IMG/VR virus record: IMGVR_UViG_3300028833_000001
Span: 63,171 to 127,170 of that record
DNA length: 64,000 bases
Reading direction: 5' to 3' (one strand)
DNA from: a virus
Lineage: Duplodnaviria; Heunggongvirae; Uroviricota; Caudoviricetes
Positions 31,266 through 59,530 of the stretch are shown here, piece by piece. Within the stretch, counting starts at the first letter, position 1. Each line of letters begins with the position of its first letter. The notes under the pieces were generated by a model. That model did no database searches, was not told the origin of the DNA, and saw nothing but the letters and a program-made list of their open reading frames with translations. Position numbers and translations under genes: made by a program.

Positions 31266-31268
31266 ATA

Positions 31269-32729: not shown

Positions 32730-32737
32730 AATATATA

Positions 32738-35317: not shown

Positions 35318-35348
35318 ATATAATATCTTCTTTTTATTTTATTTTTAT

Positions 35349-42127: not shown

Positions 42128-42145
42128 AATATGCGTTGTTATTCT

Positions 42146-42520: not shown

Positions 42521-42522
42521 AC

Positions 42523-42924: not shown

Positions 42925-42929
42925 AATTT

Positions 42930-43310: not shown

Positions 43311-43344
43311 ACTGCTTTTTTGCTTAAAAGTTGTTTACAAATTA

Positions 43345-43572: not shown

Positions 43573-43591
43573 TTTTAATCTGTTTATATTA

Positions 43592-43969: not shown

Positions 43970-43971
43970 AT

Positions 43972-44179
43972 TTATTCGGCCTTAGTTTATACATTCCTTC
44001 AGGTGCTTCACGAGCAAGCCCTTTTTCAATTTGCGCCGTACATAGGCATTCGTGCAGTCGGTTTGTCAAAGCCTGCATACGCAGTCGTCTTTCGGGAATG
44101 TTTCAACAAACACATACATCCCGTATGGAATCCTCGCGCATAGGTCTGCGTATTTTATCTTTTCTTTTTCTTTATTCAT
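43972..44179 (-). pseudogene. degraded family A gene
   Basis: MNKEKEKIKYADLCARIPYG, TGA at 44066-44068, then IEKGLAREAPEGMY in another frame; the central anchor is missing. Confidence 0.8.
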
Positions 44180-44183
44180 ACAA

Positions 44184-44804
44184 TTAAAGTTTGAAACAGT
44201 TGCTTTCGTTTATCTTGCCGCTTATGACATCGTTCACAAGTTCTCTGTCAACAGTATCGTCACAGCCGTCACAGAAACTTTCCTTGCATTGCCTGCATCT
44301 CGGATGCACAACATTGTGCTGACGAATGAACGCCTTTGCTTCTTCAACGGTCATCGGAGTATGTGTTTCTTTATTCAAGGCAGCATACATTCCTGCTGGT
44401 GCTTCGAGTGCGAGACCCCTTTCAATTAAACCACGGTAATCAAACATTTTCTTATTAAGAAAATCAAATGACTTGTATGACATACAAGAATCATAATGAC
44501 CGTTAATATAGATGGTATCGAATGTTGCGTCATATTCCACTTCTTCTTCCTCCGTCATACTTGACATACGGCGCAAGTACGGTTTGACATTCTCAATCGG
44601 GTAGAACACATTGTTCACGAATCCCGAATGGAGCGGTACGTCCTCGTAGTAGTTGCTGATGACACCGTAGCAGTTGCCGACATATTTCAGCACGCCATTT
44701 TCGGTTTTACCGCCGCCCAAGCCGCTCACGCATTTGCATCTCACCTTATACGGCAACCTGCCGCAAAGGTCTTTCATTAAAAGGTCTCTATCTTCAGTCG
44801 TCAT
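44184..44804 (-). CDS. family A protein with fused C-terminal Cys domain
   Basis: A anchors, then an extension containing CRQCKESFCDGC after ALEAPAGMY. Confidence 0.85.
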   Translation of the reverse strand: MTTEDRDLLMKDLCGRLPYKVRCKCVSGLGGGKTENGVLKYVGNCYGVISNYYEDVPLHSGFVNNVFYPIENVKPYLRRMSSMTEEEEVEYDATFDTIYINGHYDSCMSYKSFDFLNKKMFDYRGLIERGLALEAPAGMYAALNKETHTPMTVEEAKAFIRQHNVVHPRCRQCKESFCDGCDDTVDRELVNDVISGKINESNCFKL

Positions 44805-44818
44805 ATCTTTTAATTTGT

Positions 44819-45019
44819 TTATATGTCTTTATTTACTTTTGGACAATATTCCAAATCTGTAAGCGGTATTCCGTGGCAACCGAATTCTGTTATCGAACCG
44901 CAATACATTGGAATATAATCATTTGGTGTCGGGTATGGATAAAAATGATTTCTACAATCTCTTTCAAATATACACTTATCGCAATTTACACATTGTGTTT
45001 TTATAAATTCATTCGTCAT
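44819..45019 (-). CDS. small Cys-rich protein
   Basis: CVNCDKC...C. Confidence 0.5.
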   Translation of the reverse strand: MTNEFIKTQCVNCDKCIFERDCRNHFYPYPTPNDYIPMYCGSITEFGCHGIPLTDLEYCPKVNKDI

Positions 45020-45130
45020 AATTTTAACAATTATATATTCCCTCTTTAGTATACGATTTGATTAGTTTGTATTCGTCTTCTTCGTTATAACATTTTGGTT
45101 TTATGCCACCGATTATTATTTATAAGTCAA

Positions 45131-45643
45131 TTAACTATCTGATTCTTTGATAAATTCAAAGAAATACGGAACACGCCACATGTACGAATTTGGATTTTCT
45201 TTTTCATAATTTTGTGACCATTTACGACATTTTTCTTCATTATTAATCAGTTTCCAACCATTTGGCAAAACTACTTTTCCGAAGCCTTCTGGCGTAGTCT
45301 CCCAATATCTAATCCAGTATGTCAGAAAATCATATAATTTAGAGTATAAGCTGACTTCATATTTTATAATTCCCAAAAATGCTTCGTCTCTGAACAATTT
45401 CAATTTCATATCAGTTGCATTTCTTATTGCTCCTGGGTCCGCATTTTCATCAGTATCATATTGCTTAAAATTACAAGAAGTTTCAAACTTATCACCAAAA
45501 ACGCAACAATCACACTTTAAACAATTCTTGTTATTATCAAGTGCACACTGTCCTCCTTCTCCACTAACCCAGTTCTCAAAATTGGTACACCTTCTTTTCA
45601 TTTCATTTGTTAACTCCAGCTTATTTGTCATATTTTTTTTCAA
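45131..45643 (-). CDS. hypothetical protein
   Basis: 170-aa ORF with a Cys-rich N-half. Confidence 0.55.
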   Translation of the reverse strand: MKKNMTNKLELTNEMKRRCTNFENWVSGEGGQCALDNNKNCLKCDCCVFGDKFETSCNFKQYDTDENADPGAIRNATDMKLKLFRDEAFLGIIKYEVSLYSKLYDFLTYWIRYWETTPEGFGKVVLPNGWKLINNEEKCRKWSQNYEKENPNSYMWRVPYFFEFIKESDS

Positions 45644-45647
45644 ATTT

Positions 45648-46016
45648 TTAACGATACATTCCTTCTGGCGCTTTGAGTGCCAATCCTTTATGGATTAGTC
45701 CTCTAACATCAAACCCTTTAGATAATAACCAATCATTAACCATTGTAGTTGCCGATTCATTATTTGCAAAACTACAATCTTGTGATTTAACTATCATCTT
45801 ATGATATTCTTTACTCTCTTTCTCCGTCATACTTGATAGAGGGCGGAGATAAGGTTTGTAATTGTAGTATTCAATATTATGCAGAAGCTCGTTCAGTATG
45901 TCTGTTGTCAAGAAACACTTATAGTCTGTGTCATCATCTGTACAATTAATGACAACATTATAAGCCAATCTTCCACAAAGGTCTTTCAACAATAAAATTT
46001 TCTCTTCTTGTGTCAT
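45648..46016 (-). CDS. family A protein
   Basis: DLCGRLAY...KPYLRPLSSMTEKE...GLALKAPEGMY. Confidence 0.85.
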   Translation of the reverse strand: MTQEEKILLLKDLCGRLAYNVVINCTDDDTDYKCFLTTDILNELLHNIEYYNYKPYLRPLSSMTEKESKEYHKMIVKSQDCSFANNESATTMVNDWLLSKGFDVRGLIHKGLALKAPEGMYR

Positions 46017-46225
46017 AATATTAAAAAATTTTGTTCTATCATTTGTAATGTATCAAACATATCAGAAGCAAGAATAATATAGTCAATATCATCACATTGT
46101 GTGGTATCAGAAGACTTGGCGATTTGATTCTCGTAATATTCCATTTTCTCACTCAAATATCTTCCGATGAGAACTTTCCTTTTATGAATACTGTCCTCTG
46201 TTTGAATTTCTTGTAATGTTGTCAT
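46013..46225 (-). CDS. cargo gene X, copy 1
   Basis: 70 aa; differs from 57193..57405 by one residue. Confidence 0.8.
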   Translation of the reverse strand: MTTLQEIQTEDSIHKRKVLIGRYLSEKMEYYENQIAKSSDTTQCDDIDYIILASDMFDTLQMIEQNFLIL

Positions 46226-46227
46226 AA

Positions 46228-46641
46228 CTATTCAGTTTTAGTGTTATACATACCTTCTGGGGCTTCGAGAGCTAGACCTTTTTCGATTAACCCATTATAG
46301 TCTATATGATGTTCGTTTAACCATTCAAGTGGTTCTGAAATGTTTCCAACTTTCGGTAGTGTATACCGTGAATGCGGGTGACACCAGTTGTATATGTTTG
46401 TGAACTCCTCCCATTCTCTTTCCGTCATTTTTTCTATCGGACGCAGATATGGCTTGACAAAACCAATTTCAATAGGCGCAATACCTTTTACAGTAACAGC
46501 ATATTCCCAATTGCCTTCATCTGTAACGATTAAATCAATTCCTTTAGCAGTATAGACGTTTTTATTCAATGCAATTTTAACGCCATACATCAATCTTGCA
46601 CAAAGGTCTTTCAATAATAAACTTTTTTCTTCTCGCGTCAT
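46228..46641 (-). CDS. family A protein
   Basis: DLCARLMYGVK...KPYLRPIEKMTERE...GLALEAPEGMYNTKTE. Confidence 0.85.
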   Translation of the reverse strand: MTREEKSLLLKDLCARLMYGVKIALNKNVYTAKGIDLIVTDEGNWEYAVTVKGIAPIEIGFVKPYLRPIEKMTEREWEEFTNIYNWCHPHSRYTLPKVGNISEPLEWLNEHHIDYNGLIEKGLALEAPEGMYNTKTE

Positions 46642-46654
46642 AATACTTATTTTA

Positions 46655-47071
46655 TTATTGATACATTTCTACTTTGGCTTCGAGTGCCAACCCCATTCCA
46701 ATCAGACCACGGTAGTCGAAGTGGTGGGCGTTCAACCATTCAACCTGCCTGCTGTCGCACTTAAACACGTTGGCTGAATGTTTCAACCGTTCAGTCGGCT
46801 CATAATTTTTCCAATTCGGGCATGGTATGTCATGTATACCAGAAGCAATCATGCACTCGTTCAGTTCTTCTATTGACATTGATTCCATAGGACGCAGGTA
46901 TGGACGCACCTCGTCAACATAGTAGGCATCGTTTATCAGCCACTTGCTGTCGTTGATTCTTGCCGAAAAGAGATATTCATCATCGTCATCGGGCAGCAAC
47001 TTGATTACGACTTCGTGTGCGAGCCGTCCGAACAAATCCTCGGTCAATATGTTTCTTTCTTCGTCTGTCAT
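46655..47071 (-). CDS. family A protein (visibly GC-richer)
   Basis: RPYLRPMESMS...HHFDYRGLIGMGLALEAKV. Confidence 0.85.
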   Translation of the reverse strand: MTDEERNILTEDLFGRLAHEVVIKLLPDDDDEYLFSARINDSKWLINDAYYVDEVRPYLRPMESMSIEELNECMIASGIHDIPCPNWKNYEPTERLKHSANVFKCDSRQVEWLNAHHFDYRGLIGMGLALEAKVEMYQ

Positions 47072-47397
47072 TGCTTTTCCTTTTCTAATTTGAATAACAC
47101 GTTACTTTTTTTAATGTCGTATGTGTGACCATCGTGGATTATTCTGTAATAAGAACCGTAGAAATTAATCCAATATACATTAAGTGTAACTTCCGTTCCT
47201 GCCGAAATCTTTTTAGGATTCTTTCTGAAATAGTGAATGTCCTCCTCGTTATAGCAATCCTTCTTTATAACGGCTTTCACGTTATCGAATTGGTACATTT
47301 TTCCGATATGGCCGAATGTACCGTCATTGTCAAGGTTATGGCATACAACAGCCAATTTCGTATAGTTACCGTCAGTTATGACACCAATTCTTTTCAT
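47068..47397 (-). CDS. hypothetical protein
   Basis: 109-aa ORF, ATGA-coupled to an A gene. Confidence 0.6.
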   Translation of the reverse strand: MKRIGVITDGNYTKLAVVCHNLDNDGTFGHIGKMYQFDNVKAVIKKDCYNEEDIHYFRKNPKKISAGTEVTLNVYWINFYGSYYRIIHDGHTYDIKKSNVLFKLEKEKQ

Positions 47398-47433
47398 AGT
47401 ATGATGAATTTGCTGTTTTGTACTTTATCTCTA

Positions 47434-47646
47434 TCAGAAATTCAATTCAATGTCAGTTCCGCCGTAGGTTTCATAAGCCTCGTAACGCTCGTTGCCCGTC
47501 CAATCTTGGGTGTCCCAACATTCGAGGTCATCGTGTTCGTCAATCACTTTCTTGATTTCGTCTGAAACACGCTCCTTGGTGATTTCGTTTTCGGGAATGT
47601 CAAGGTCAACTGTCAGAAATAGTTTTTTAATTATTGTCACTTCCAT
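47434..47646 (-). CDS. small acidic protein
   Basis: start at MEVTII preferred. Confidence 0.55.
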   Translation of the reverse strand: MEVTIIKKLFLTVDLDIPENEITKERVSDEIKKVIDEHDDLECWDTQDWTGNERYEAYETYGGTDIELNF

Positions 47647-48112
47647 AATCTTTTGTGTTTTTGTTGTACATATCTTTTGGCGCTTCAAGGGCCAAACCAA
47701 TTTGAATCAACCCTCGATAGTCAAAATGATGGGCATTAAGCCAGTCGAATTTGTTATATGCTAACAACAGTGGGGCGTATTGGTCTAATTTGGATTTATG
47801 CTGTCTGTTTACCTCGTTCAAAGCAATGTCGATGTCCTTTCGCGCTGCTTTCTCGAAATCCTTTCTCTCTTCCTCAGTCATGCTTGATAGCTGACGGAGA
47901 TACGGTTTAATCTCATTAATGGAGCAAAAATTAAAATTTCCATAATCATCAATAAAATCAACGGTGTAATATATTTTATGTTGATTAAACCTGTCAACAT
48001 CTTGTTCTATGTTCAATAAAGTTTTAACATTGCCATCTACGTACAGTTTGACACCATATAATTGTCTTGCACAAAGGTCTTTTACCAGTAGTTCTTTTTC
48101 TTCTTGCGTCAT
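47627..48112 (-). CDS. family A protein
   Basis: DLCARQLYGVK...KPYLRQLSSMTEEE...GLALEAPKDMY. Confidence 0.85.
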   Translation of the reverse strand: MTQEEKELLVKDLCARQLYGVKLYVDGNVKTLLNIEQDVDRFNQHKIYYTVDFIDDYGNFNFCSINEIKPYLRQLSSMTEEERKDFEKAARKDIDIALNEVNRQHKSKLDQYAPLLLAYNKFDWLNAHHFDYRGLIQIGLALEAPKDMYNKNTKDYGSDNN

Positions 48113-48137
48113 AATACTTACTTTATTGTTGATATAT

Positions 48138-48200
48138 TCATACTTTGGCTTCGAGTGCCAAGCCCATTCCGAATGGTTTTGTCCAATTTCCGTCTTTTGT
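48138..48200 (-). pseudogene. orphan family A 3' end
   Basis: 48141-48170 matches 46670-46699 at 29/30 nt (GMGLALEAKV). Confidence 0.75.
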
Positions 48201-48214
48201 CAATTGTTGTTGTT

Positions 48215-49057
48215 TTATTCTTCGCCTTTCCAACCGAGAATGATTTTCACAACCTCCCAAAGTTCATCTGGCATTGTGTATGAATAGTGGTCTTTGTCTT
48301 TTACAGAACCGAATCTCTTGTCAAGGTCATTATTGCTGTAATTGTTTTCGTCTATGCCTTCGTATAAGGCGTATTCCACCATATATCTTGGAGCAGTGCG
48401 ATATGCTTTTAGAATAGATATTTTGCTTGTGAGTGCAACAAAATCGTCAAGTTTCTCTTGCAGTGAGTTGAACTTTTCGGTTACATCGTATGGGTCGTAC
48501 TTCATGCCAAAATACTCCTCAACCCTACTGAAAAGGTAGCCTGGTGCAATGGAATCATAGCGTGAGAAGTCGTCATTTTTGTATTCGTACACTGTTTTTT
48601 TCTCCTTGAGTGCCCACTCATTGCCACAGTCTTTGCATTTGTTCACTGGGAACGTATCCAATTCTCCGTCAATCTTTGAACTGCCGTATGAATTGTGTAT
48701 GTAACTTCCGCCGAACAAAATGTGCGATGCATATGAGTATGAACTGTGAGAACCGCCGCCGTGAACCTCTCCCTTTACTCTCTTGATGTGGTTGATGACA
48801 TTTTGACTGCCGCACTTCGGGCAAATGCTGTTCTCTTTGTCAATCATCTCGTTTTTCTCATCAACATACTCTTTTGCAATGTCGTATTGCTTGCTGCTGT
48901 ATTCTTCGAGATAATTTTCAATTTGTCTCTTGCGGGATTGATACGCCTCTTTGTCACGTCTCGCTTGTTCTAGGCGTTCCGCTTCGGCTTTTTCTCTTTC
49001 TGCTTTTTTGCGTGCAAGCCTTGCCTGCTTTCTAGCTTTGAATCCAAATAAGCCCAT
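48215..49057 (-). CDS. zinc-ribbon protein with coiled-coil N-terminus
   Basis: CPKCGS...CKDCG. Confidence 0.65.
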   Translation of the reverse strand: MGLFGFKARKQARLARKKAEREKAEAERLEQARRDKEAYQSRKRQIENYLEEYSSKQYDIAKEYVDEKNEMIDKENSICPKCGSQNVINHIKRVKGEVHGGGSHSSYSYASHILFGGSYIHNSYGSSKIDGELDTFPVNKCKDCGNEWALKEKKTVYEYKNDDFSRYDSIAPGYLFSRVEEYFGMKYDPYDVTEKFNSLQEKLDDFVALTSKISILKAYRTAPRYMVEYALYEGIDENNYSNNDLDKRFGSVKDKDHYSYTMPDELWEVVKIILGWKGEE

Positions 49058-49089
49058 TTCTTCTTAAATTGCTTTGTTCTTTATTTTAT

Positions 49090-49117
49090 ATAATATTTTT
49101 TTAATTGTTTTTGTCAA
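49090..49117 (-). promoter_or_regulatory. sigma70-like promoter
   Basis: TTGACA-16 nt-TATTAT. Confidence 0.55.
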
Positions 49118-49673
49118 CTATTCTTATTTGTCTCCTACCACCATAAGGGAGCTGTACAAGATACGGACGCATCCATGGGTTTGAACTTCTTCCGTTCGAG
49201 TCAATTGTACCCCAGAAATTATTACCGTCATTACTCTCACGGATGAATCGGATTCGGTTTGTTTTCATTCTAGAAATACACTCACGGAAATGATTCTCAT
49301 CAAACTCCACGTCATCATAAGACGACGGGATATATTCCACAAAATCATCTTCTTTTATTTCGTACAAACCAAATATCTCACACATTTTTCTTTTGAGATT
49401 CTGGTGTAGAAGGCACTTCGTGTCACCGTACGAAATCGTTAATTTAACAAGTTCGATTTTGTCACCATATTTTCCTGTGGTGTATTCGAGGCCATCTATA
49501 CTGTTCTCAGTGAACTGGTGTTGCAACATCCACAACACAAGCGCATCTTTCAACTCATAATATTGGTTTCTAGTGATGATTTTGCTCACATCGAACTTTT
49601 TCGTCACCTTGTTGGTGTATTCGATATCTTCGAGCAATTGTCTGAAATCTACCTTTACTGCTATATAATCCAT
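49101..49673 (-). CDS. hypothetical protein
   Basis: true start probably at MDYIAV, after the duplicated promoter element. Confidence 0.6.
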   Translation of the reverse strand: MDYIAVKVDFRQLLEDIEYTNKVTKKFDVSKIITRNQYYELKDALVLWMLQHQFTENSIDGLEYTTGKYGDKIELVKLTISYGDTKCLLHQNLKRKMCEIFGLYEIKEDDFVEYIPSSYDDVEFDENHFRECISRMKTNRIRFIRESNDGNNFWGTIDSNGRSSNPWMRPYLVQLPYGGRRQIRIVDKNN

Positions 49674-49745
49674 TGCTTTGTTATTTATTTTATGTGAACC
49701 TATATTACTATTTTTTTTTCGTTTTTCCAAAAACAGTTTCATTAT
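49670..49745 (-). promoter_or_regulatory. duplicated promoter and leader element, copy 1
   Basis: TTGGAA-17-TAATAT...aacaaagcaATG; near-identical to 51212..51287. Confidence 0.7.
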
Positions 49746-49746
49746 G

Positions 49747-50133
49747 TCAGATAAGGTTTTCAAGACAATATTTTATAGCAGCTTCACAGGCTTCTTCATA
49801 AGTGTTATATGCTGTTTCAGATTCATATTCGGAAACTGAATTGGGGTATTTTATTATTTCAAGCCACCACTTATTACCCACTTTTGGAAAGTCATGATAT
49901 GGATATATTTCTAAAGAATATATTTCCCTTAGCCACTTCATGGCCATTTGAAGAGTTGGAGTGGCATATTCTAAATCATCAAGTGCTGAATTTTTATAAT
50001 AAAGCTGTCCGTCTACCTCCAATCCAGGTGTACCATAATCAATATTGTTGTAAAAACAACTACATTCTTCATCAAATCCTTTTTCTTTCAAGAGCTTTGC
50101 TGTTTCAAAACTAACGTAATCTTCTTTAATCAT
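49747..50133 (-). CDS. family B protein
   Basis: all three B anchors present. Confidence 0.85.
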   Translation of the reverse strand: MIKEDYVSFETAKLLKEKGFDEECSCFYNNIDYGTPGLEVDGQLYYKNSALDDLEYATPTLQMAMKWLREIYSLEIYPYHDFPKVGNKWWLEIIKYPNSVSEYESETAYNTYEEACEAAIKYCLENLI

Positions 50134-50138
50134 AAAAC

Positions 50139-50555
50139 TTAAACTAAATTTTCCAGACACCACTTGATACCAGCTTCACAAGCCCCTTCAAATGTAGCAA
50201 AGTATCTTTCGTCATCAGACATTCGACTGCTGTCGTATATTCTATACACTGTGAAATACCAGACAGGTGTTTGATAATATTTTGTTCCACGTTCATCTTC
50301 ATAGTAATCGGTTTCCGACTGAACAACGACTTCAAATGACAACTCTCTCAGCCACTTCATGGCCATCTGAAGAGTTGGGGCAGGATATGCCTTTGGATGT
50401 GGTCTTGATGTTGAAACATCATTTATTTTCCCTGTTGGTGAATATTCCATCCACACCTTTGTTTCTGAGCCAAATGAACCATCGCCATATACATCGAAAC
50501 CCTTTTCTTTCAAGAGTTTTGCAGTTTCAAAGCTGACGTAATCTTCTTCAATCAT
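50139..50555 (-). CDS. family B protein
   Basis: all three B anchors present. Confidence 0.85.
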   Translation of the reverse strand: MIEEDYVSFETAKLLKEKGFDVYGDGSFGSETKVWMEYSPTGKINDVSTSRPHPKAYPAPTLQMAMKWLRELSFEVVVQSETDYYEDERGTKYYQTPVWYFTVYRIYDSSRMSDDERYFATFEGACEAGIKWCLENLV

Positions 50556-50745
50556 AACTTCATTTACTTTTTTTTAATTCAAAACACAATTGGAATTTCA
50601 ACCAAAGAAAAGTTATCCCAAACACAAACGGCCAATCTTTTCCGAAGTTTGGGGAGTTGTAGGTACCTAATGTTATTGTTGGGATAACAAAGAAAGTCAT
50701 TGAAGATTCCCATCTAAAAATTATTTTCATATTCTTATATATATC

Positions 50746-50946
50746 TCATTTGCTTTTAAAGTTTTCAATAAGTTTTCTTATTTGCCATTCCCCGCATTTG
50801 GCTATTTCTTCCGCAATTTTCTTATCATAAAACCTATAAACATTAGATACATAAACTGGGTAATGGGAATTGACTTCACGTTTTATTACAAGTCTTAATA
50901 AATCATCCATTTCATTCTTATAAAGTTCACAATCTTCTTTATACAT
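50746..50946 (-). CDS. hypothetical protein
   Basis: 66-aa ORF. Confidence 0.5.
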   Translation of the reverse strand: MYKEDCELYKNEMDDLLRLVIKREVNSHYPVYVSNVYRFYDKKIAEEIAKCGEWQIRKLIENFKSK

Positions 50947-50963
50947 AATGCAAATTATTTTTC

Positions 50964-51215
50964 TTAAAGTCCAAAATCGTGCTCATATCCTTGATGGATA
51001 TCAATGAATCTGTAAATCTCTACAATGCTATTATATGCATCGCTTCCACCTTTTGCGTATCTGTAAAGCACATATGCGCACCCTTCGAATTCATCGTACA
51101 TTATATAGAATTCAGGGTAATCTGGATTTACCCACAAAAATCCGCCTTTCGGTTTGCTTGGGTCTCCTGTTTTATGCCATCCCCATTCCAGTAAATCAAT
51201 TTTTTCTAATTTCAT
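50964..51215 (-). CDS. hypothetical protein
   Basis: true start probably at MKLEKID, after the duplicated promoter element. Confidence 0.55.
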   Translation of the reverse strand: MKLEKIDLLEWGWHKTGDPSKPKGGFLWVNPDYPEFYIMYDEFEGCAYVLYRYAKGGSDAYNSIVEIYRFIDIHQGYEHDFGL

Positions 51216-51287
51216 TGCTTTGTTGTTTATTTTGCATAAACCTATATTACTATTTTTTTTCCGTTTTTCCAAAAACGGTTTCATAAT
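51212..51287 (-). promoter_or_regulatory. duplicated promoter and leader element, copy 2, with inverted repeat
   Basis: CCGTTTTT-GG-AAAAACGG overlapping TTGGAA-17-TAATAT. Confidence 0.7.
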
Positions 51288-51384
51288 GTTTCAACGTGTA
51301 ACACTTCTTGCATTGTTCTTTTGGTTTTAAACATCTAATGTTGCACCATTGTTTTGTTATTTCATATTCTGCTTTTGTCATAGG

Positions 51385-51852
51385 TCAAATAAGGTGTTCC
51401 AGACAATACTTTATCGCGGCTTCGCAGGCTTCCTCAGACGTGCTGAAACCTTTGGGCGTTAAAGTCTCGTCTTCAACAAGCGCACATATTTCCTTGATGC
51501 AGGATTCGCCCGTTTCTGTGTTCGATATGCAAGCATAATAATCGGGATGAAAATCTTCGTGGTTTTCAGAATAGGTAATGTTGACCGCAATATGGATGTT
51601 ATGCACCTCCCTCAGCCACTTAATGGCCATTTGAAGGGTTGGACGCAGATATTCATCATAATCCAAATCAGAGTTTGTCAAATCATCGTATACAATACCA
51701 ATTTCTTGACCACTTTGGGTTTTAATACCATATCCAGATTCATAACATCTTTCGGAATAAAAGCCTCCATGACATCCAACCACATCCGAATCAAAACCCT
51801 TTTCTTTCAAAAGCTTTGCTGTTTCAAAACTAGCATAATCCTCTGTAATCAT
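51385..51852 (-). CDS. family B protein
   Basis: all three B anchors present. Confidence 0.85.
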   Translation of the reverse strand: MITEDYASFETAKLLKEKGFDSDVVGCHGGFYSERCYESGYGIKTQSGQEIGIVYDDLTNSDLDYDEYLRPTLQMAIKWLREVHNIHIAVNITYSENHEDFHPDYYACISNTETGESCIKEICALVEDETLTPKGFSTSEEACEAAIKYCLEHLI

Positions 51853-51854
51853 AA

Positions 51855-52232
51855 TCAAATCAAGTTTTTCAAAACATATGATAATGCTTCTTCAACGGCT
51901 TGTTCATAAGAATCAAAGTAAATTGTCTTGCCTTCTTCTTGAGAAAAGAATCTACCTTTTTCATGCCCAACCCATCTGAATTGAATATTCTTTCCTGTTG
52001 TGTAGGTAAGAATATCAATATAGATATTATGCTCTTTTCTCAACCACTTCATTGCCATCTGCATGGTCGGGGCCGATATAAACGGGCAATCATTCTTGTC
52101 ATTCCAATTGATATCCACCATGAACGACATTAGTCCATTGCCGCAGTCATATAATCCGCTCGTTGCTTCGGAAAATCCTTTCGCCTTCAACAACTTTGCA
52201 GTCTCAAAGCTGACGTAATCTTCTTTTATCAT
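51855..52232 (-). CDS. family B protein
   Basis: all three B anchors present. Confidence 0.85.
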   Translation of the reverse strand: MIKEDYVSFETAKLLKAKGFSEATSGLYDCGNGLMSFMVDINWNDKNDCPFISAPTMQMAMKWLRKEHNIYIDILTYTTGKNIQFRWVGHEKGRFFSQEEGKTIYFDSYEQAVEEALSYVLKNLI

Positions 52233-52243
52233 ATTATCTTATA

Positions 52244-52570
52244 TTATTCGGTTTTGGTATTGTACATTTTTGAAGATTTTTCCATATGTTGTTTAACGAG
52301 GTCATTTAAGAATTTCTCACTCGCAGATTTTACGCTATAAGCATAATAACCATTAAAAAAAACATGATATTTTCCGTCAAATGTTTGTATGACATGTGTC
52401 CATGCAAAAGTAATTGATGAACCGCCAATACTACTAAAGCCACGAGCCGTACTATCCCATGCTTGTTCAAAAACAAACACTTGTGATATTTGGTCATTAT
52501 TATAATTACTTAATATGTAACCATTTACTTTGGCAGTTGTAATAGTTAAATCACTTAATATATTTTCCAT
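52244..52570 (-). CDS. hypothetical protein carrying a family A C-terminal tail
   Basis: unrelated body ending MYNTKTE. Confidence 0.65.
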   Translation of the reverse strand: MENILSDLTITTAKVNGYILSNYNNDQISQVFVFEQAWDSTARGFSSIGGSSITFAWTHVIQTFDGKYHVFFNGYYAYSVKSASEKFLNDLVKQHMEKSSKMYNTKTE

Positions 52571-52591
52571 ATTACTAATAAATTATCTAAT

Positions 52592-53047
52592 TTAATACAT
52601 TCCTTGTGGAGCTTCCAAGGCTAGACCTTTTGGAATTAAGCCACGGTAATCGAAGTGGTGAGAGTTAAGATAGTCAAGTACCCAATAATTTATTGTACTC
52701 TCACTGTATTTTTCATTAGTGACACAATATTCACTTATAATTTCAATTCCATAATGGGAATAAGAATCATAATCGTTATAAGGCTGTTCAAAATCACATC
52801 CATCACACAATTCTTCTAACTCTTCCTCCGTCATGCTTGACATTGGACGGAGGTATGGTTTTATCTTTTCAAGATTATAGCAATTGTGTTCGGCAATTAC
52901 AATCATCAACGAAAAGTCGACACCAACTAATTTCTGGACATCCAAACCCCTTTCTCTTAGAAAATCGCTATCAATGTTTATTTTAACTCCATACGGCAAA
53001 TATCCACAGAGTGCATTTACAACCAATTCTTTTTCTTCTTGCGTCAT
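52592..53047 (-). CDS. family A protein
   Basis: all three A anchors present. Confidence 0.85.
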   Translation of the reverse strand: MTQEEKELVVNALCGYLPYGVKINIDSDFLRERGLDVQKLVGVDFSLMIVIAEHNCYNLEKIKPYLRPMSSMTEEELEELCDGCDFEQPYNDYDSYSHYGIEIISEYCVTNEKYSESTINYWVLDYLNSHHFDYRGLIPKGLALEAPQGMY

Positions 53048-53297
53048 AACTGTTTATCCTTTTAATTTATATCAAATTAAGTAAATCAAGTTCTTCTTTA
53101 CTGAATAAACGAGGATGTCTACCATCCATCATATAATGCCAGCGACACCACCAATGTTCTTTACGTTCGACAATATAACGGACTAACCCAATTCCTAAAT
53201 ACAAACTTGTTATTCTAACTTTCATTTATAAGTTTCTAAAATTCAAATCAAATTTTCAAAGCAATATTTTATTACGTCCATCTCAGATTGTTCATAA

Positions 53298-53513
53298 TTA
53301 AATGGAATAGATAACTCCCTCAGGATATAATTTCTTAAAAGTAATTTCATCATTGCAAGTATCTATTACGTAACCATAGCAATCATACACATTATTAGTA
53401 TTAGGGTCGTAGGTATATTTAGGAGGTAGAGGTGCATATTTACCCATTCCAAATAGATAATCTTCATACTCATCTGAAAATAAATCGCTAAAACACTCAG
53501 GAACTAATTTCAT
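53298..53513 (-). CDS. hypothetical protein
   Basis: 71-aa ORF. Confidence 0.5.
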   Translation of the reverse strand: MKLVPECFSDLFSDEYEDYLFGMGKYAPLPPKYTYDPNTNNVYDCYGYVIDTCNDEITFKKLYPEGVIYSI

Positions 53514-53522
53514 GCTAATTCA

Positions 53523-53561
53523 TCAAAATTTTAACAATAATTCTTTTTCTTCTTGTGCCAT
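53523..53561 (-). pseudogene. orphan family A 5' end
   Basis: MAQEEKELLLKF then stop. Confidence 0.7.
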
Positions 53562-53563
53562 AA

Positions 53564-53938
53564 TTAAATCAAATTTTCTAAGCAATATTTTATGGCAGCT
53601 TCGCAGGCTTCTTTATATGTCTTGTAAATAATATCGGATTCATGTTTGGTTAAACCACATCCTTTGGAATGTTGTTCAATCCTGTACCACCAATCATTAT
53701 TTTCTTGAATTGCATCGTGAAACGGATAGATTTCAAGGTGAAAAATATCTCTAAGCCATTTCATAGCCATTTGAAGAGTTGGACATTCTATTCTGTCTTT
53801 CTTATCAAAATCATGATAGTGTTGATAACACCAACGTATTGAACTGTCTGGTACATAATAGCAAGAGGTGTCACCCTCAAACCCCTTCTCTTTCAGGAGT
53901 TTCGCTGTTTCAAATGAAACATAATCTTCTGTAATCAT
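53564..53938 (-). CDS. family B protein
   Basis: all three B anchors present. Confidence 0.85.
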   Translation of the reverse strand: MITEDYVSFETAKLLKEKGFEGDTSCYYVPDSSIRWCYQHYHDFDKKDRIECPTLQMAMKWLRDIFHLEIYPFHDAIQENNDWWYRIEQHSKGCGLTKHESDIIYKTYKEACEAAIKYCLENLI

Positions 53939-53953
53939 CACCATTTTTCATTT

Positions 53954-54475
53954 TTATTTATACATCCCTTCTGGAGCTTCTAATGCAAGTCCTTTTTTAA
54001 TTAACCCACGGAAGTCAAAATGATTTTTAAAGAGGAATTCTTCCAAAAGTTCGAAGTCTTCGAAATCGTATTCTGATTTATCTTCATTGTCGTATAGGCA
54101 TTTTTTAATCTCAATGCCACGATGCGAATAATTGTCATAGTCATCAGATGGATGGCCAAAATACAGAATACCTCTCAACTCGTTTTTCTCTTCCTCCGTC
54201 ATGCTTGATAGTGGACGGAGAAATGGAATATCTTCACCAAGTACAAAAGGTCTTGTTGCAGTTGACATTCCGCACCCATCATACTCGTCATAACCAATCC
54301 AACCATCAATATCTGTTTTAATTAAATGTCCACTCCTACTATATGAAAGAGAACATAACTTAATAATTTTCCATTTATGATAATCATACTGGTTTTCTTT
54401 ATAATTAACCACAACCCCATACGGCAATCTCGCGCATAGGTCTCTTACCAATAGTTCTTTTTCTTCCTGTGTCAT
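53954..54475 (-). CDS. family A protein
   Basis: all three A anchors present. Confidence 0.85.
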   Translation of the reverse strand: MTQEEKELLVRDLCARLPYGVVVNYKENQYDYHKWKIIKLCSLSYSRSGHLIKTDIDGWIGYDEYDGCGMSTATRPFVLGEDIPFLRPLSSMTEEEKNELRGILYFGHPSDDYDNYSHRGIEIKKCLYDNEDKSEYDFEDFELLEEFLFKNHFDFRGLIKKGLALEAPEGMYK

Positions 54476-54478
54476 ATC

Positions 54479-54835
54479 TTACACAATTCCTTTTTGTTGT
54501 AAATACTCAGTTAGTTTGAGGCACGATGCAACCGATGGCCCCATTTCCTCATCGTCATAGCAGTAGGTTGCGTCACACAATTCACTCCAACCAATGTCGC
54601 CCTTGATGTAATTGTTCATTGCTGCGGTAATTTCGGCATAGTATTCCTTTTTTTCCTCGGCATCACTCTCGTTAAGCGATAGGTCGATGTTAAAAAGGAA
54701 AATGTTGCGGTAGATGTGGCAGGCTTCTTTCACTGTTAAATCACGATTCATCTGTAACCCATACATATACGGATTTTGCTCCGACCTGCGAAACGCAACA
54801 ACTGGGTTGAGTTTTATTCTTCTTTTAAGTTCCAT
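54479..54835 (-). CDS. hypothetical protein
   Basis: 118-aa ORF between two A genes. Confidence 0.6.
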   Translation of the reverse strand: MELKRRIKLNPVVAFRRSEQNPYMYGLQMNRDLTVKEACHIYRNIFLFNIDLSLNESDAEEKKEYYAEITAAMNNYIKGDIGWSELCDATYCYDDEEMGPSVASCLKLTEYLQQKGIV

Positions 54836-54846
54836 AATTTTTTATT

Positions 54847-55272
54847 TTAATACATTCCTTCTGGTGCTTCAATAGCAAGCCCCATTATAATCAAGTCACG
54901 GTAATCAAGATGATTAGAATTGAACAAATCAAAGGTTTCAATAGTATAACTACTAATATACATTTTATGGTATTTAATCCTATCATCCAATTCAGTTTCG
55001 GAAAGTGCATTCATCGCGCAAACCGTTTTTTTTTCTTCCATTGTCATGCTTGACATCTGGCGAAGATACGGTTTCACCTCGTTTATTCTAAACAAGCTGA
55101 ATGAATCGTCTGGATAATAAAATTCTACATACCCATTGTTTCGTAAACCCTTTATTTGTCCAACCACTTCAACAGGCATATTTGTTTCTTCATCATAACA
55201 CGTGACAGACCCAACTATACCATAAGGTATGCCACTTAATAAGGTATTATATATAAGTTCTCTATCTGTCAT
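54847..55272 (-). CDS. family A protein
   Basis: IPYG...KPYLRQMSSMTMEE...LDYRDLIIMGLAIEAPEGMY. Confidence 0.85.
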   Translation of the reverse strand: MTDRELIYNTLLSGIPYGIVGSVTCYDEETNMPVEVVGQIKGLRNNGYVEFYYPDDSFSLFRINEVKPYLRQMSSMTMEEKKTVCAMNALSETELDDRIKYHKMYISSYTIETFDLFNSNHLDYRDLIIMGLAIEAPEGMY

Positions 55273-55477
55273 AACTATTATGATTATTTGCTTGTTTGAC
55301 AATTTCTATTACTTCATTCGGTCTTATACATTCTCCGTCATCTAACCATATATGCCAATAAGTTGAGAACCAATACGGGTCATCCTCACATAGTTCCACT
55401 TTTGTCACTACATTGTAACGGTCTTCTTTGTCAGTGGCAATACGCCACTTTATTTTGTCTCCGACTTTAGGTATCAT
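55262..55477 (-). CDS. small hypothetical protein
   Basis: PKVGDKIKW, possibly an SH3-like beta fold. Confidence 0.5.
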   Translation of the reverse strand: MIPKVGDKIKWRIATDKEDRYNVVTKVELCEDDPYWFSTYWHIWLDDGECIRPNEVIEIVKQANNHNSYDR

Positions 55478-55506
55478 GATTATTATGTTTTATGATATTT
55501 TCATTA

Positions 55507-55779
55507 CTATTCCTCCATTGCATTCTTGAAAAAGTGTATAAGCTCACCCGTATTGTAATCATGTAATGAATTTGTCGGAGGCATAAAATCCTCCACGTGT
55601 TTCTCTAAGAACTTGCATGCCTTGTCAATCATCGTTTTGTCAGCCCAATTTGCACCTTCGATGAAACAATCACATTGTGCTTTCACAAATGTTGGCGATG
55701 AACCCATGGCATATCTACTATATGCAGCATGTTTTATTTCTTCTTCTCTTTTCATATCACTCACAATTTGTTTCCTCAA
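55507..55779 (-). CDS. family C protein
   Basis: FIEGANWADKTMIDKACKFL...FKNAMEE. Confidence 0.75.
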   Translation of the reverse strand: MRKQIVSDMKREEEIKHAAYSRYAMGSSPTFVKAQCDCFIEGANWADKTMIDKACKFLEKHVEDFMPPTNSLHDYNTGELIHFFKNAMEE

Positions 55780-56023
55780 TCAAGTCATAATATGCACACT
55801 TAATTGTGTTGATTACATTATCAACCAATTCCTTGCGCATGTCATTTAATGGGAAGTCAAAAGAATTCCTTGCATTGATGATAGCTTTTGAGAAAAGGAA
55901 ATCCTTTTTGCTTGCCATATCCATAGCGCCATTTCTATAGTAATCAATACCGCCTTGAGAACAACTTTTTCTACTCGCAAGAGCATCAACCATTTCGATG
56001 TTTTTTAAGTCAATTTTGTTCAT
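55757..56023 (-). CDS. hypothetical protein
   Basis: 88-aa ORF. Confidence 0.5.
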   Translation of the reverse strand: MNKIDLKNIEMVDALASRKSCSQGGIDYYRNGAMDMASKKDFLFSKAIINARNSFDFPLNDMRKELVDNVINTIKCAYYDLIEETNCE

Positions 56024-56214
56024 AATATTGTATTTTTTATATTGTTAACAATCATTAGTTGAATTTCACTTCCGAAAACTTTTCACCTTCCAATGACAAT
56101 ATTAGATAATATTTTCCTTCTTTGAAATCCACCGAAATTTTCAAATTATTCTTAATATAATCTTTTAATTCTTCTTTTTCCATATCACCCAAAAATTATT
56201 ATTTGTTTGTTGAA

Positions 56215-56242
56215 ATTATACAATAAAAATTTCAATTATCAA
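56215..56242 (-). promoter_or_regulatory. sigma70-like promoter
   Basis: TTGATA-16 nt-TATAAT. Confidence 0.45.
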
Positions 56243-56510
56243 ATTGATTATTAAAATTTTCAAGGCATTCTAGAATCTCGGACACTTTATTTTTATCTAA
56301 TACCTCAACAGATATTCTAGATATTTCATTTATTTTGTCTAAAATAACTACAGCAGGATAGCTTTTCGGAAAATCAGTAACCATGCTTCTTATGTCCTGT
56401 TTGGAATAAAAACAACCTTCATCGACTCTCATGAAGTCATATAGAGCATTATTGAAGCCGTTTTGGTTCTTTACCACAAATATATTATATGTAATCTTTA
56501 TGTAGTTCAT
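56232..56510 (-). CDS. hypothetical protein
   Basis: 92-aa ORF. Confidence 0.55.
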   Translation of the reverse strand: MNYIKITYNIFVVKNQNGFNNALYDFMRVDEGCFYSKQDIRSMVTDFPKSYPAVVILDKINEISRISVEVLDKNKVSEILECLENFNNQFDN

Positions 56511-56531
56511 TGTGATTTTTTTTGTTTTTGA

Positions 56532-56747
56532 TTATTCCAAGTCGATTCCTTCTATTTTATTACAACACATTAGTATTCCATTGCAAATTTCTTCAAATAA
56601 GGCGTTTTTGTATATTTCAAGTTCCCTTTGTTTTTCTTTCCATTCGGCCATTGCCATCGCCGACAGGTATAAGTGTTCTTCATTGTAACCTGTTTCTGGT
56701 CTATAAAAGCTTTCAGAAATTTCCTTCGCTCTTTCTTCTGTTGTCAT
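56532..56747 (-). CDS. family C/D small protein
   Basis: MTTEERAKE...MAEWKEK. Confidence 0.6.
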   Translation of the reverse strand: MTTEERAKEISESFYRPETGYNEEHLYLSAMAMAEWKEKQRELEIYKNALFEEICNGILMCCNKIEGIDLE

Positions 56748-56749
56748 AA

Positions 56750-57196
56750 CTATTCAGTTTTAGTGCTGTACATTCCTTCGGGTGCTTCAAGAGCCAATCC
56801 CATAGGAATGAGCCCGCGATAGTCGAAATGATGGGCGTTGAGCCAGTCAGTGTTTACACATGCTTCGTCAGCGCTACACGCGGCTTTTATTGTGACAGGT
56901 TCATAGTTAGCACCAGCCTCGTAGCATTCACTGGACTCATACTCGGAATTCTTGAAATAATCCTCAGCCTCTTTCTCCGTCATGCTTGACATCTGACGGA
57001 GATATGGTTTGATGTCCCATACCGTGTAAACCTTTGTGCCATTGATGTACCCGTCCTTGTCGATACTTTCCAATGTCCCAACTGCACACATTTGCTGGTC
57101 CCGTTCGTGGTCCCAATATTCCCTGCAATATTTTACCCCGTAAGGCAGTGTCGCGCATAGGTATTTTAGCAATAAATCTTTTTCTTCTTGTGTCAT
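56750..57196 (-). CDS. family A protein
   Basis: all three A anchors; ends GMYSTKTE. Confidence 0.85.
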   Translation of the reverse strand: MTQEEKDLLLKYLCATLPYGVKYCREYWDHERDQQMCAVGTLESIDKDGYINGTKVYTVWDIKPYLRQMSSMTEKEAEDYFKNSEYESSECYEAGANYEPVTIKAACSADEACVNTDWLNAHHFDYRGLIPMGLALEAPEGMYSTKTE

Positions 57197-57405
57197 AATA
57201 TTAAAAAATTTTGTTCTATCATTTGTAATGTACAAAACATATCAGAAGCAAGAATAATATAGTCAATATCATCACATTGTGTGGTATCAGAGGACTTGGC
57301 GATTTGATTCTCGTAATATTCCATTTTCTCACTCAAATATCTTCCGATGAGAACTTTCCTTTTATGAATACTGTCCTCTGTTTGAATTTCTTGTAGCGTT
57401 GTCAT
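57193..57405 (-). CDS. cargo gene X, copy 2
   Basis: near-identical to 46013..46225. Confidence 0.8.
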   Translation of the reverse strand: MTTLQEIQTEDSIHKRKVLIGRYLSEKMEYYENQIAKSSDTTQCDDIDYIILASDMFCTLQMIEQNFLIL

Positions 57406-57407
57406 GA

Positions 57408-57854
57408 CTATTCGGTTTTAGTGTTATAAATTCCTTCTGGAGCCTCCAATGCCAATTCTTTTTCTATTAAGCTACGGTAGTCAAAATAATGGACGTTAAG
57501 CCAATCGTATTTAGCATTATCACCAGACATTGCCGCCTTGAAATAGTCGCCACTTTTATTTAGTTCTTCTATTTCCGCATTTTGGTAATACTGAAACCAT
57601 TCATTGTGTTCCTCCTCCGTCATACTCGACATCGGACGGAGGTAAGGCACAAATTCAGTTATAGCGGTTAAACACCAACTGTCATTCTTGCATTGGATGA
57701 TGAAAATTTCATTATCGACATGTTCTTTACCAACAATAACACCTATTCCACTGTCGTAAGACAATACACCTTCCTCTTTTATTTTAACCTTAACTCCATA
57801 CGGAAGCCTCGCACAGAGGTCCACCAATAACAGTTCTTTTTCTTCTTTATTCAT
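57408..57854 (-). CDS. family A protein
   Basis: all three A anchors; ends GIYNTKTE. Confidence 0.85.
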   Translation of the reverse strand: MNKEEKELLLVDLCARLPYGVKVKIKEEGVLSYDSGIGVIVGKEHVDNEIFIIQCKNDSWCLTAITEFVPYLRPMSSMTEEEHNEWFQYYQNAEIEELNKSGDYFKAAMSGDNAKYDWLNVHYFDYRSLIEKELALEAPEGIYNTKTE

Positions 57855-58038
57855 ACCTATATGGTTTTATTGTATAATATTCATCCGCATAATCATACGG
57901 GTATCTTTTCATTTCTTCGCATTTTTTATGCAACGCAAATTTTGCTGCATTGTGTGATGGAAACGATTCAACAAACACCCAGTTGCAATACATGGCCCAA
58001 GGTTTCGGTTTGTACAGTTTCTCTTTTTTATTACTCAT
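57847..58038 (-). CDS. hypothetical protein
   Basis: 63-aa coupled ORF. Confidence 0.55.
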   Translation of the reverse strand: MSNKKEKLYKPKPWAMYCNWVFVESFPSHNAAKFALHKKCEEMKRYPYDYADEYYTIKPYRYE

Positions 58039-58238
58039 TCCTCGCCTCCTTCCTTTTGTTCGAAAATTATATGTTTAGCGGCTTCTGTGACAAGTTTCTT
58101 TGCACGAATCAAAAGTCTTCTTACATTTTCATCGCCCATGGCACCCTTCCTGTACGGTTCAACTGCTCCTCTTGTGTCAGATAAAGAGGTCTTGTAGGGG
58201 ATTCCATATCGACAGGTAACTTCTTTAGTCTTGGTCAT
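58035..58238 (-). CDS. hypothetical protein ending EGGEE
   Basis: ATGA-coupled on both sides. Confidence 0.55.
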   Translation of the reverse strand: MTKTKEVTCRYGIPYKTSLSDTRGAVEPYRKGAMGDENVRRLLIRAKKLVTEAAKHIIFEQKEGGEE

Positions 58239-58609
58239 TTGTCATAGTCGTAATTAGATGTTTTACCATTAAATTCAAATGAAATAATTTCATGTTCTTT
58301 CGGGTCAATTTGTTTTTCTTTCTTAACTGATTTCCAGGAAGACCCCTTATCCCTGTATACCCCATCGGTTTCATTGATAAAAGGAACCATAGTATCGCAT
58401 ATATGGTCCATAACATCTCCCAAAGTCCAAGTTTCACCAAAACTACGATATTTGCGATATATCATTTTAACTATATCGTAAATTTTCTCCATAGTCCATT
58501 TTTCGGAGTCGAAATAAAGATGACTCTTGCTGGTGTTCCATTCCTCGCGGTTAGACAAGCAAAGACCGTTGTCACCGCTGTAACTGTACATATAGCTAAT
58601 AAGTTTCAT
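58235..58609 (-). CDS. hypothetical protein
   Basis: 124-aa ORF. Confidence 0.55.
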   Translation of the reverse strand: MKLISYMYSYSGDNGLCLSNREEWNTSKSHLYFDSEKWTMEKIYDIVKMIYRKYRSFGETWTLGDVMDHICDTMVPFINETDGVYRDKGSSWKSVKKEKQIDPKEHEIISFEFNGKTSNYDYDK

Positions 58610-58629
58610 AAATTAATTTTTATAATATT

Positions 58630-59073
58630 TCATTTAATTTCATACAATCCTTCGGGTGCTTCTAGAGCAAGACCTATCTCAATCATTGTTTTACCATTGC
58701 CATCAGTTCTCCAATCAAAATGTTTTGAATCTAACCATTCTACATATCGATTCATATACAATATAAAATTATCACTCTTTGCGTCCTTCCGATACCATCT
58801 TGACTCTTGTTTTTCTTCTTTAGTCATCGAGGCCATCGGTCGGAGGTATGGCTTGATATTTTCAATCGGATAGAACACGTTGTTCACGAATCCTGAATGA
58901 AGTGGCACTCCTTCATAGTAGTTACTGATGACACCATGGCAGTTGCCAACATATTTTAGCACGCCATTTTTTGTTTCACCACCTCCCAAACCGCTCACAC
59001 ATTTGCATCTCACCTTATATGGCAACATTGCACAAAGGACTTTAAGCAATAATTCTTTTTCTTCGTTTTTCAT
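58630..59073 (-). CDS. family A protein
   Basis: shares its first variable segment with 44184..44804. Confidence 0.85.
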   Translation of the reverse strand: MKNEEKELLLKVLCAMLPYKVRCKCVSGLGGGETKNGVLKYVGNCHGVISNYYEGVPLHSGFVNNVFYPIENIKPYLRPMASMTKEEKQESRWYRKDAKSDNFILYMNRYVEWLDSKHFDWRTDGNGKTMIEIGLALEAPEGLYEIK

Positions 59074-59075
59074 TT

Positions 59076-59225
59076 CTATACGCCTTTTTTTTGATTTACA
59101 TAATTAACTATATCACAAATCTGGTCTAAGTTGAGAGAATAATATGTTTTATCATCCCACCATGCTTTATTTCCACATATTTCGTGCTCCATCAACCATT
59201 TAACGATTAAGTCTTTTATGTTCAT
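59076..59225 (-). CDS. small hypothetical protein (below track cutoff)
   Basis: 49-aa ORF MNIKDLIVKWLMEHE..., ATGA-coupled. Confidence 0.5.
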   Translation of the reverse strand: MNIKDLIVKWLMEHEICGNKAWWDDKTYYSLNLDQICDIVNYVNQKKGV

Positions 59226-59530
59226 TCCTCGCCCCCTTCCATTGCTTTTTTGAAGCTTTTTAAAGATTTTTCAACGTCAACAAGCCCATCGTAATCAGGA
59301 TTAAGTGTTGAAAGCAGACTGTTGAATTGTAAAAGTTCATCACGATATAATTTGCACGCCTTCTCAATCATTGTCTTGTCAGCATATTTTGCCCCTTCAA
59401 CAAAACCTTCGATAGATGCTTTGACATCTGTTTCATCATAAAAGTTATTCGAGCCATCATAAGGCACTCGAAACCCGTGTTTGTCGGCATATATATCCGC
59501 CTTGTTTTTTATTTCTTCTTTTCTTGTCAT
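59222..59530 (-). CDS. family C protein
   Basis: FVEGAKYADKTMIEKAC...FKKAMEGGEE. Confidence 0.75.
   Translation of the reverse strand: MTRKEEIKNKADIYADKHGFRVPYDGSNNFYDETDVKASIEGFVEGAKYADKTMIEKACKLYRDELLQFNSLLSTLNPDYDGLVDVEKSLKSFKKAMEGGEE

Follow-up and report, generated by a model that had tools for sequence, protein, structure and literature searches.

In the hyperplastic regions of T4-type phages, modules are shuffled by way of promoter-early stem-loop (PeSL) cassettes (Arbiol et al. 2010, PMC2839356; Comeau et al. 2014, PMC4122927), and in Neisseria the cassettes of minimal mobile elements are exchanged by homologous recombination in conserved flanking genes (PMC3787668). The locus considered here lies in a stretch of 64,000 nucleotides (hereafter the window), which comprises bases 63171-127170 of the 361,445-bp virus record IMGVR_UViG_3300028833_000001, rated complete; within it a small gene, called X below, is present twice, 11 kb apart, each time between two members of a gene family called A. 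An initial annotation of the window had likened this arrangement to an integron-like array devoid of integrase and attC sites, in which A genes serve as homology arms for the insertion of cassettes. In our view, general recombination at the short conserved termini of A genes probably copied X into a second joint between two A genes, so that the case amounts to gene shuffling of a kind known in phages, in a variant based on coding sequence, and is neither an integron-like system nor a new kind of machinery.

PeSL-mediated shuffling in T4-type phages is the closest known system. Both involve a T4-type host, a region dense in small genes, the lack of a dedicated recombinase, and a much-repeated short sequence flanking genes at places where close relatives differ by the insertion, deletion, or replacement of a single gene. 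The repeats are nevertheless of different kinds: a PeSL consists of a sigma-70-like early promoter and a stem-loop terminator, whereas the repeat here is made of the opening and closing codons of a protein family of 16 members, the joints at X being 2 nt long or overlapping (which leaves no room for a regulatory cassette) and the arms measuring only about 15-20 nt. The Neisseria elements, too, hold varied cargo or none between conserved flanks, and their cassettes travel by general recombination with no mobility gene of their own; there, however, the flanks are single-copy orthologs at one chromosomal site and exchange follows transformation, whereas the flanks here are dispersed paralogs, so that the same cargo can land at many sites in one genome, as the two copies of X illustrate. 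Integrons resemble the locus in their small promoterless genes of one orientation and in single-gene gain and loss, but no IntI integrase, attC/attI, or common promoter was found here and the joints lie inside coding sequence; the absence of integrase and attC in the initial annotation is thus borne out, while the likeness to an integron is an analogy that fails at the defining features. In the multigene families of African swine fever virus and the 'genomic accordions' of poxviruses, the homology of tandem paralogs drives gain, loss, and the formation of chimeras; what varies there is the family's own copy number, whereas what is moved from one family member to another here is a passenger gene unrelated to them.

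The two copies of X

The repeated tract occupies 46003-46248 (copy 1) and 57183-57428 (copy 2), and an ungapped comparison of the two 246-nt copies gives exactly the seven differences that had been counted initially (at 46053, 46054, 46112, 46216, 46217, 46226, and 46234). Three of these are synonymous in X, another is synonymous but lies in the A tail, a further one is intergenic, and two fall in a single codon, where they produce the change D58C in copy 2. The open reading frames (ORFs) at both loci agree with the earlier description of a tract running from the end of an A gene (YNTKTE-stop), through X, into the MTQEEK start of the next. In each copy the elements follow one another as the five terminal codons of an A gene with their stop (NTKTE-stop), a 2-nt spacer, X, and the first codons of the next A gene, the ATG of which overlaps the X stop (ATGA). 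All genes concerned are on the minus strand. X itself is a 70-aa ORF at 46013-46225 in copy 1 and at 57193-57405 in copy 2. Copy 1 is preceded by A4 (46228-46641; 137 aa; profile hidden Markov model E 1.6e-50), which ends GMYNTKTE-stop, and followed by A3 (45648-46016; 122 aa), which starts MTQEEK; copy 2 is preceded by A11 (57408-57854; 148 aa), which ends GIYNTKTE-stop, and followed by A10 (56750-57196; 148 aa from the ATG at 57196), which starts MTQEEK and ends GMYSTKTE-stop.

The four flanking A genes all differ, with a protein identity of 47% for A4/A11 and 52% for A3/A10, and the loss of identity inside them that the initial annotation reported is abrupt. In bins of 20 nt, 17-20 positions of 20 match over 46003-46262, 13-14 over about 40 nt leftward, and 12-14 over about 60 nt rightward, after which some 5 of 20 match, the random level. 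BLAST of the genome against itself widens the match to 45976-46260 and 57156-57440 (94% over 285 nt); the 97% over the 246-nt core exceeds the identity of all others (74-89%) among the roughly 60 highest-scoring self-matches listed for the 361-kb genome, and exact runs inside the repeat reach 103 nt. The intervening 11 kb is not duplicated, as judged from the same self-comparison. The tract is thus near-identical and bounded by sequence shared among paralogs, with unrelated sequence beyond, which is the pattern by which ectopic gene conversion or duplication between dispersed paralogs is recognised.

Both copies of X are confirmed to be real. The genome is a metagenome assembly with long exact runs in the repeat, and the short-read Logan contigs break inside the repeat and so cannot bridge it, which are the circumstances under which one copy might consist of misplaced reads of a strain variant; such an artefact is nevertheless extremely improbable. 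A 20.6-kb contig assembled independently from a different JGI metagenome (L014) matches the window at 99.96% from 58856 to 49193 and spans A11-X-A10, that is, copy 2 with both of its flanks, and two separate contigs (L011 and L018) each support one side of copy 1, the former being 100% identical from 46215 downwards. The whole stretch is contained only in two runs, both of a single sheep-gut sample that is possibly the source (goat and bovine gut runs, in which small shares only occur, were not used as evidence of habitat). In these sheep-gut runs, for which depth and joints were read from Logan contigs and not from raw reads, the contig over 57183-57395 has a depth of 80 against 46-49 in its flanks, the expectation for two copies being 79.5 (120 shared 31-mers present twice and 63 copy-specific ones present once). 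The seven differences between the copies are fixed, and all four flanks are unique.

Metagenomes yielded 24 homologs of X, with 73-99% amino acid identity, and the dN/dS of 0.13-0.5 among pairs of diverged homologs indicates that X is a real gene. The model of X is a predicted two-helix hairpin (pLDDT 78), with which a fold search gave no match (best E 2.9). An exact protein look-up of copy-1 X returned no record, which we judge to be a matter of gene calling and not of absence; one contig of the 20-50 kb size class carries A4 and A3 both exactly. Residue 58 is D or N in all 22 homologs aligned; copy 1 keeps the family-wide D58 and has a near-zero branch in the X tree, whereas copy 2 has a longer branch. 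Its codon 58 (57232-57234) shows a two-base change from GAT to TGT, which is also present on the independent contig L014. That nearly all of the change since the duplication lies in copy 2 hints at relaxed or new selection on that copy.

Extent of the unit and the probable route of its copying

How far the shared sequence reaches into the A genes bears directly on the proposal that A genes act as homology arms. The first 15 nt of A3 and A10 are slightly more alike than the family background (0.93 against a mean of 0.80), and the values further in are 0.70 against a family mean of 0.64 for nt 16-45 of the A3/A10 N-end and 0.83 against 0.78 for the APEGMY codons of A4/A11. Past about 15-20 nt, then, the A termini flanking copy 1 resemble those flanking copy 2 no more closely than A genes paired at random resemble each other, and the arms are very short; the joints do lie at A termini, as had been proposed, but the exchange itself would have to lie within the 15-20 nt or so that A genes have in common on each side.

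On the C-terminal side, the NTKTE-stop tail (46228-46245, minus strand; five codons and the stop) travels with X and not with A4. It stands 5' of X in both copies here and in the contigs L004, L006, and L009, with the variants KSKTE in L008 and NDKTE in L019 (seven contexts altogether). By comparison, the A4 ortholog of the complete relative L026 (91% nt identity) ends GMYNN-stop, and a gene in L020 with a C-terminal half matching A11 (88% nt) ends MYNC-stop. As the orthologs of A4 and of the A11 C-terminal half both lack the tail, it is not a general feature of A genes and is part of the X unit. The initially proposed mobile unit, an A C-end, the cargo, and an A N-end, therefore keeps its joints within A termini, but its C-end is mainly the tail of the X unit; the duplicated tract therefore comprises the NTKTE-stop tail and X, followed by some 14 nt from the universal start of A genes.

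According to the route that we favor, one X would have been copied to a joint between two A genes 11 kb away, together with a leader of 20 nt (the NTKTE-stop codons and 2 nt) and the opening 14 nt or so of the following A gene, with crossovers in sequences common to all A genes, namely, at their 3' end, the ..APEGMY codons and, at their 5' end, ATGACnCAAGAAGA. The event would be an ectopic gene conversion or a double crossover on very short, imperfect homology, possibly microhomology-mediated, and would draw on the phage's own general recombination and replication machinery (UvsX/RecA-type), not on a site-specific recombinase; a RecA/UvsX-type match above the Pfam cut-off is present in a 413-aa frame. 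As a small accessory gene, X would have its usual seat at the joint between two family-A genes, and it and other small genes would be traded between related co-infecting phages by the same process, which would leave behind A ends with no body attached, chimeras of A genes, and A ends on genes outside the family. The enzymology, the role of the other copy in the same genome as donor, and the function of X are parts of this account that we infer rather than observe.

The same comparisons bear on a quite different history, in which an old tandem duplication of an A-X pair was followed by very fast divergence of the A bodies, X being kept alike by selection or by repeated gene conversion (concerted evolution). 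Arrays of this sort do grow by duplication, and the A genes indeed evolve fast and as mosaics, in which the anchors stay constant and the variable parts are replaced. Such a history is nonetheless quite improbable: dS between the X copies is only 0.03 while the flanking A bodies cannot be aligned as DNA, the neighboring A sequence dropping to the random level of identity within 60 nt; of the five positions that differ in X, selection does not act against four, three of them synonymous; the intervening 11 kb has no duplicate; and the complete relative described below has the A4 neighborhood at 91-96% identity and no X.

Contexts of X in other phages

Apart from the present genome, 11 X-bearing contigs were analysed, of which L011 and L014 are near-identical to this genome and nine are others (L006 and L007 being alike), for a total of eight new contexts; scanning IMG/VR and JGI contigs with an X profile contributed only one locus, L019, and a search for the junction pattern in IMG/VR matched a known contig alone. 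In all, some 11 metagenomic contexts outside this genome contain X, with a DNA identity of 81-97%. The expectation attached to the initial annotation, that X would be flanked by A termini with varying A bodies wherever it occurs, holds for the bodies. In the A-X-A arrangement, represented by both copies here, L008, and L019, all eight flanking A bodies differ, with 35-54% amino acid identity as among random paralogs, and one and the same variable body is found 5' of X in L008 and 3' of X in L019. In L004, L006/L007, and L009, X stands behind an A-end stub with no A body; the stub is a 28-aa mini-A in L004 and a stop-interrupted mini-A in L009, the left limits of the stubs vary among contexts, and the non-A gene downstream of X in L006 opens with 12 A-type codons. 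An A start is fused in frame to X in L012, and in P0004 X apparently lies behind a tRNA, a placement read from the protein only.

A complete 413-kb relative (L026/G002) is 91-96% identical to this genome over window positions 47688-46236, and neither a DNA nor a profile search found X in it. Its synteny with the present genome breaks at ATGTATAA in the A4 C-end, and its A4 ortholog directly abuts the next A gene.

Several observations weigh against copying within the genome by general recombination at A termini. The first of them concerns the donor: the X of L009, another phage, is 96.7% identical to copy 1, nearly matching the 97.7% between the two copies, as would be expected had the second copy been brought in separately from a co-infecting relative at the A termini, which would make the copies xenologs. 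Gain of X by transfer does occur, given its absence from the close complete relative, and in L004, L006, L009, and L010 (contigs of 7-12 kb) X accounts for all or almost all of the DNA similarity to this genome and forms an island, 90-97% identical, within contigs that are otherwise unrelated. A separate arrival is all the same unlikely, as the copies are sisters in the X tree with 94% ultrafast bootstrap support and two shared derived bases (T9 plus N33 at the protein level), a combination present in no other sampled relative. Secondly, A flanks are not a constant feature of X, for homology ends at the X frame itself in L010, in L013, and on the downstream side of L005. Thirdly, the gene downstream of the A4 ortholog in L026 is not an A3 ortholog, and no clean empty site was seen for either present position of X. 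Lastly, imperfect arms of about 15-20 nt are short for classical homologous recombination, so that microhomology-mediated or copy-choice events together with selection for intact genes would give the same picture, and, because only intergenic joints keep both genes whole, survivorship alone would leave joints after GMY and at ATG.

Junctions, scars, and the surrounding region

General recombination at A termini also fits a series of scars elsewhere in the block, comprising a junction repeat that lacks cargo, orphan ends of A and B genes (B being a second family of the region), a non-A gene ending MYNTKTE, a body segment held in common by A2 and A12, and a partial replacement of A12. The first of these is the stretch 46624-46699 (minus strand), which consists of the A5 C-end, a spacer, and the A4 N-end and is repeated at 48095-48170, upstream of A6 (91% over 76 nt); the A body is missing there and the frame is broken (..EAKV-stop), so that the repeat spans a junction without cargo. 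A2 and A12 have the first variable body segment in common (86% over 174 nt; 44584-44757 and 58853-59026), and their ends differ. In L014, elsewhere 99.96% identical, both the first half of A12 and the region upstream of it are different (L014:1-362), with the break at 58856 inside the gene, which shows recombination at A anchors on the timescale of strains. As with PeSLs, the end points of gene insertions, deletions, and replacements between close relatives fall in the repeated element, as seen in the break of synteny at the A4 C-end of L026/G002, the additional gene at its A5/A4 joint (below), and the break of L014 inside A12.

A third tail junction lies at 56739-56794 (minus strand), where the A10 C-end with STKTE-stop is followed by TT, ATGACAAC, and a different gene of 71 aa (56532-56747); 27 nt are identical to the X junction, with 89% identity over 56 nt. 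At 52244-52570 (minus strand), a 108-aa non-A gene ends MYNTKTE-stop, the tail carried by the A genes 5' of X, and the A gene that precedes it directly terminates in ..GMY-stop, as though the 108-aa gene had been set into an A tail. Orphan fragments in spacers comprise an A C-end at 43989-44021 (91% to A9), an A start with the last 7 nt of X at 53528-53564 (92% to the joint of X copy 2 and A10), and a B C-end at 53245-53272 (96% to B7). In the 413-kb relative, a 184-aa gene without counterpart here (window 46642-46654) sits exactly between the A5 and A4 orthologs (L026:1937-2500); A5 here ends ..MYQ-stop, and TATCAATAAT is common to this end and to that of the 184-aa gene, suggesting a deletion at a TAT microhomology. 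The L020 gene mentioned above (L020:2501-2923) is a chimeric A gene, its first half resembling the A gene downstream of X in L008 and its second half being 88% identical in nucleotides to A11, with the switch at the central KPYLRP..SMTEEE anchor. In the sheep-gut runs, joints in the contigs lead from 46619 to 45999 (and to 57177) at genome-like depth, placing an A4-type body behind an A3/A10-type start (MTQEEKELLLKDLCAR), a chimeric joint absent from the assembled genome; possible explanations are an A4-X form (tandem or circular), a co-resident relative, or an artefact of contig placement. For comparison with the mini-circles of PeSLs, the joint from 46619 to 45999 is one of the expected topology, seen in contigs and not in reads. 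High-depth skips between A genes in the runs most likely stem from A genes of other phages at 90% likeness and were not used.

These joints are also what would be expected of a dedicated mobile element (an integron-like cassette, conversion driven by a homing endonuclease, or a miniature transposon) whose specific enzyme acts at the A-end joint. Joints after GMY or at ATGAC recur in X, in the 71-aa gene behind A10, and in the 108-aa gene, and the gene between the A5 and A4 orthologs of L026 has the same joint; X is flanked by an 8-nt direct repeat, TTATGACA; and the chimeric contig joint is such as a circle or a tandem would give. Even so, an element of this kind is very improbable. The complete 361-kb record has no match to the tyrosine integrase profile PF00589, which all control genomes match, and no serine recombinase or resolvase. 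Neither X nor 18 other products of the region contain a nuclease domain by Pfam or PHROG (HNH, GIY-YIG, LAGLIDADG, etc.), a screen that did not extend to free-standing nucleases in the whole genome. X itself is a predicted helical hairpin of 70 aa with no fold match, the direct repeat is merely the common start of X and A genes, and the left limits of the A stubs differ by context. The X joints carry no terminal inverted repeats and no attC-like structure, only weak AT-rich palindromes (17-22 nt, 73-76% complementarity), and the overlap of the X stop with the next start leaves no room for attC; a search of the joints for promoters and terminators gave only promoter-like matches at 9 of 12 positions and no terminator, and Rfam found no family in window 42000-59500. 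A recombination hot spot at the ATGTAY (GMY) codons was also considered and is unsupported, selection for intact genes alone being enough to place joints there.

A 77-nt element that looks non-coding and is not found at the X joints occurs at 49671-49747 and 51213-51289 (90% identity), ahead of two genes, of 220 aa and 106 aa, that are unrelated to each other and each of which lies immediately downstream of a B gene; it is probably read through in the long ORF calls (both contain FLEKRKKNSNIG..KINNKAM), and L008 has a copy before the 106-aa gene (85%). This element may be a regulatory cassette of the PeSL kind.

Between about 41.8 and 59.1 kb of the window, all genes are small and on the minus strand (some 45 small ORFs), and the block that holds X is a hyperplastic small-gene region of a T4-like phage. 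With profiles built from the window copies, the 361-kb genome has 16 genes of family A, 12 of them full-length and within this block, and nine of family B. None of the 19 products of the region scanned against Pfam (X, A, B, and neighbors) gave a match above the cut-off, PHROGs matches were limited to the unnamed families 10841 (A) and 12005 (B), and a BLAST search of the locus against a phage database in distant mode gave no match; in metagenomes, a search that reached saturation returned at least 7,969 family A proteins at E <= 0.001. The A11 model (pLDDT 88) has an N-terminal helix, a small SH3/KOW-like barrel in the variable part, and a C-terminal helical hairpin, for which fold searches gave only generic small-barrel (KOW/Tudor/SH3-like) and helical-hairpin matches (Z up to 6.3, best Foldseek E 0.05); the ESM Atlas matches are confined to unnamed viral clusters, some fused to DUF6794. 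The major capsid gene is of the T4 gp23 type (PF07068, E 4e-62), and the genome is that of a T4-like jumbo (giant) phage, apparently from sheep rumen. Elsewhere in the window, three large adjacent genes at 28200-37817 (minus strand; 1021, 859, and 822 aa) each carry a Laminin_G_3/concanavalin-like domain (E 1e-33 to 1e-41) and a BspA-type leucine-rich-repeat protein is encoded at 25123-26367; these are probably host-recognition or tail-fibre proteins.

A broader proposal is possible, if doubtful: that the conserved A ends form a genome-wide docking system, a coding counterpart of PeSLs, by which small genes are captured, duplicated, and exchanged at any joint between two A genes. It would add circular or tandem A-X forms as possible intermediates and would have the constant A termini kept partly for docking; if true, giant rumen phages would capture, duplicate, and exchange single small genes at such joints.

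For annotation, general recombination at A termini would imply that short A-type starts and tails on unrelated genes, as well as mini-A frames of 28-43 aa, are recombination scars and should not be taken for domains. It would also extend the PeSL idea from regulatory cassettes to coding termini, the ends of a paralog family giving many landing sites both in one genome and across related phages. Giant phages would thereby be able to spread and duplicate single accessory genes without a mobility enzyme.

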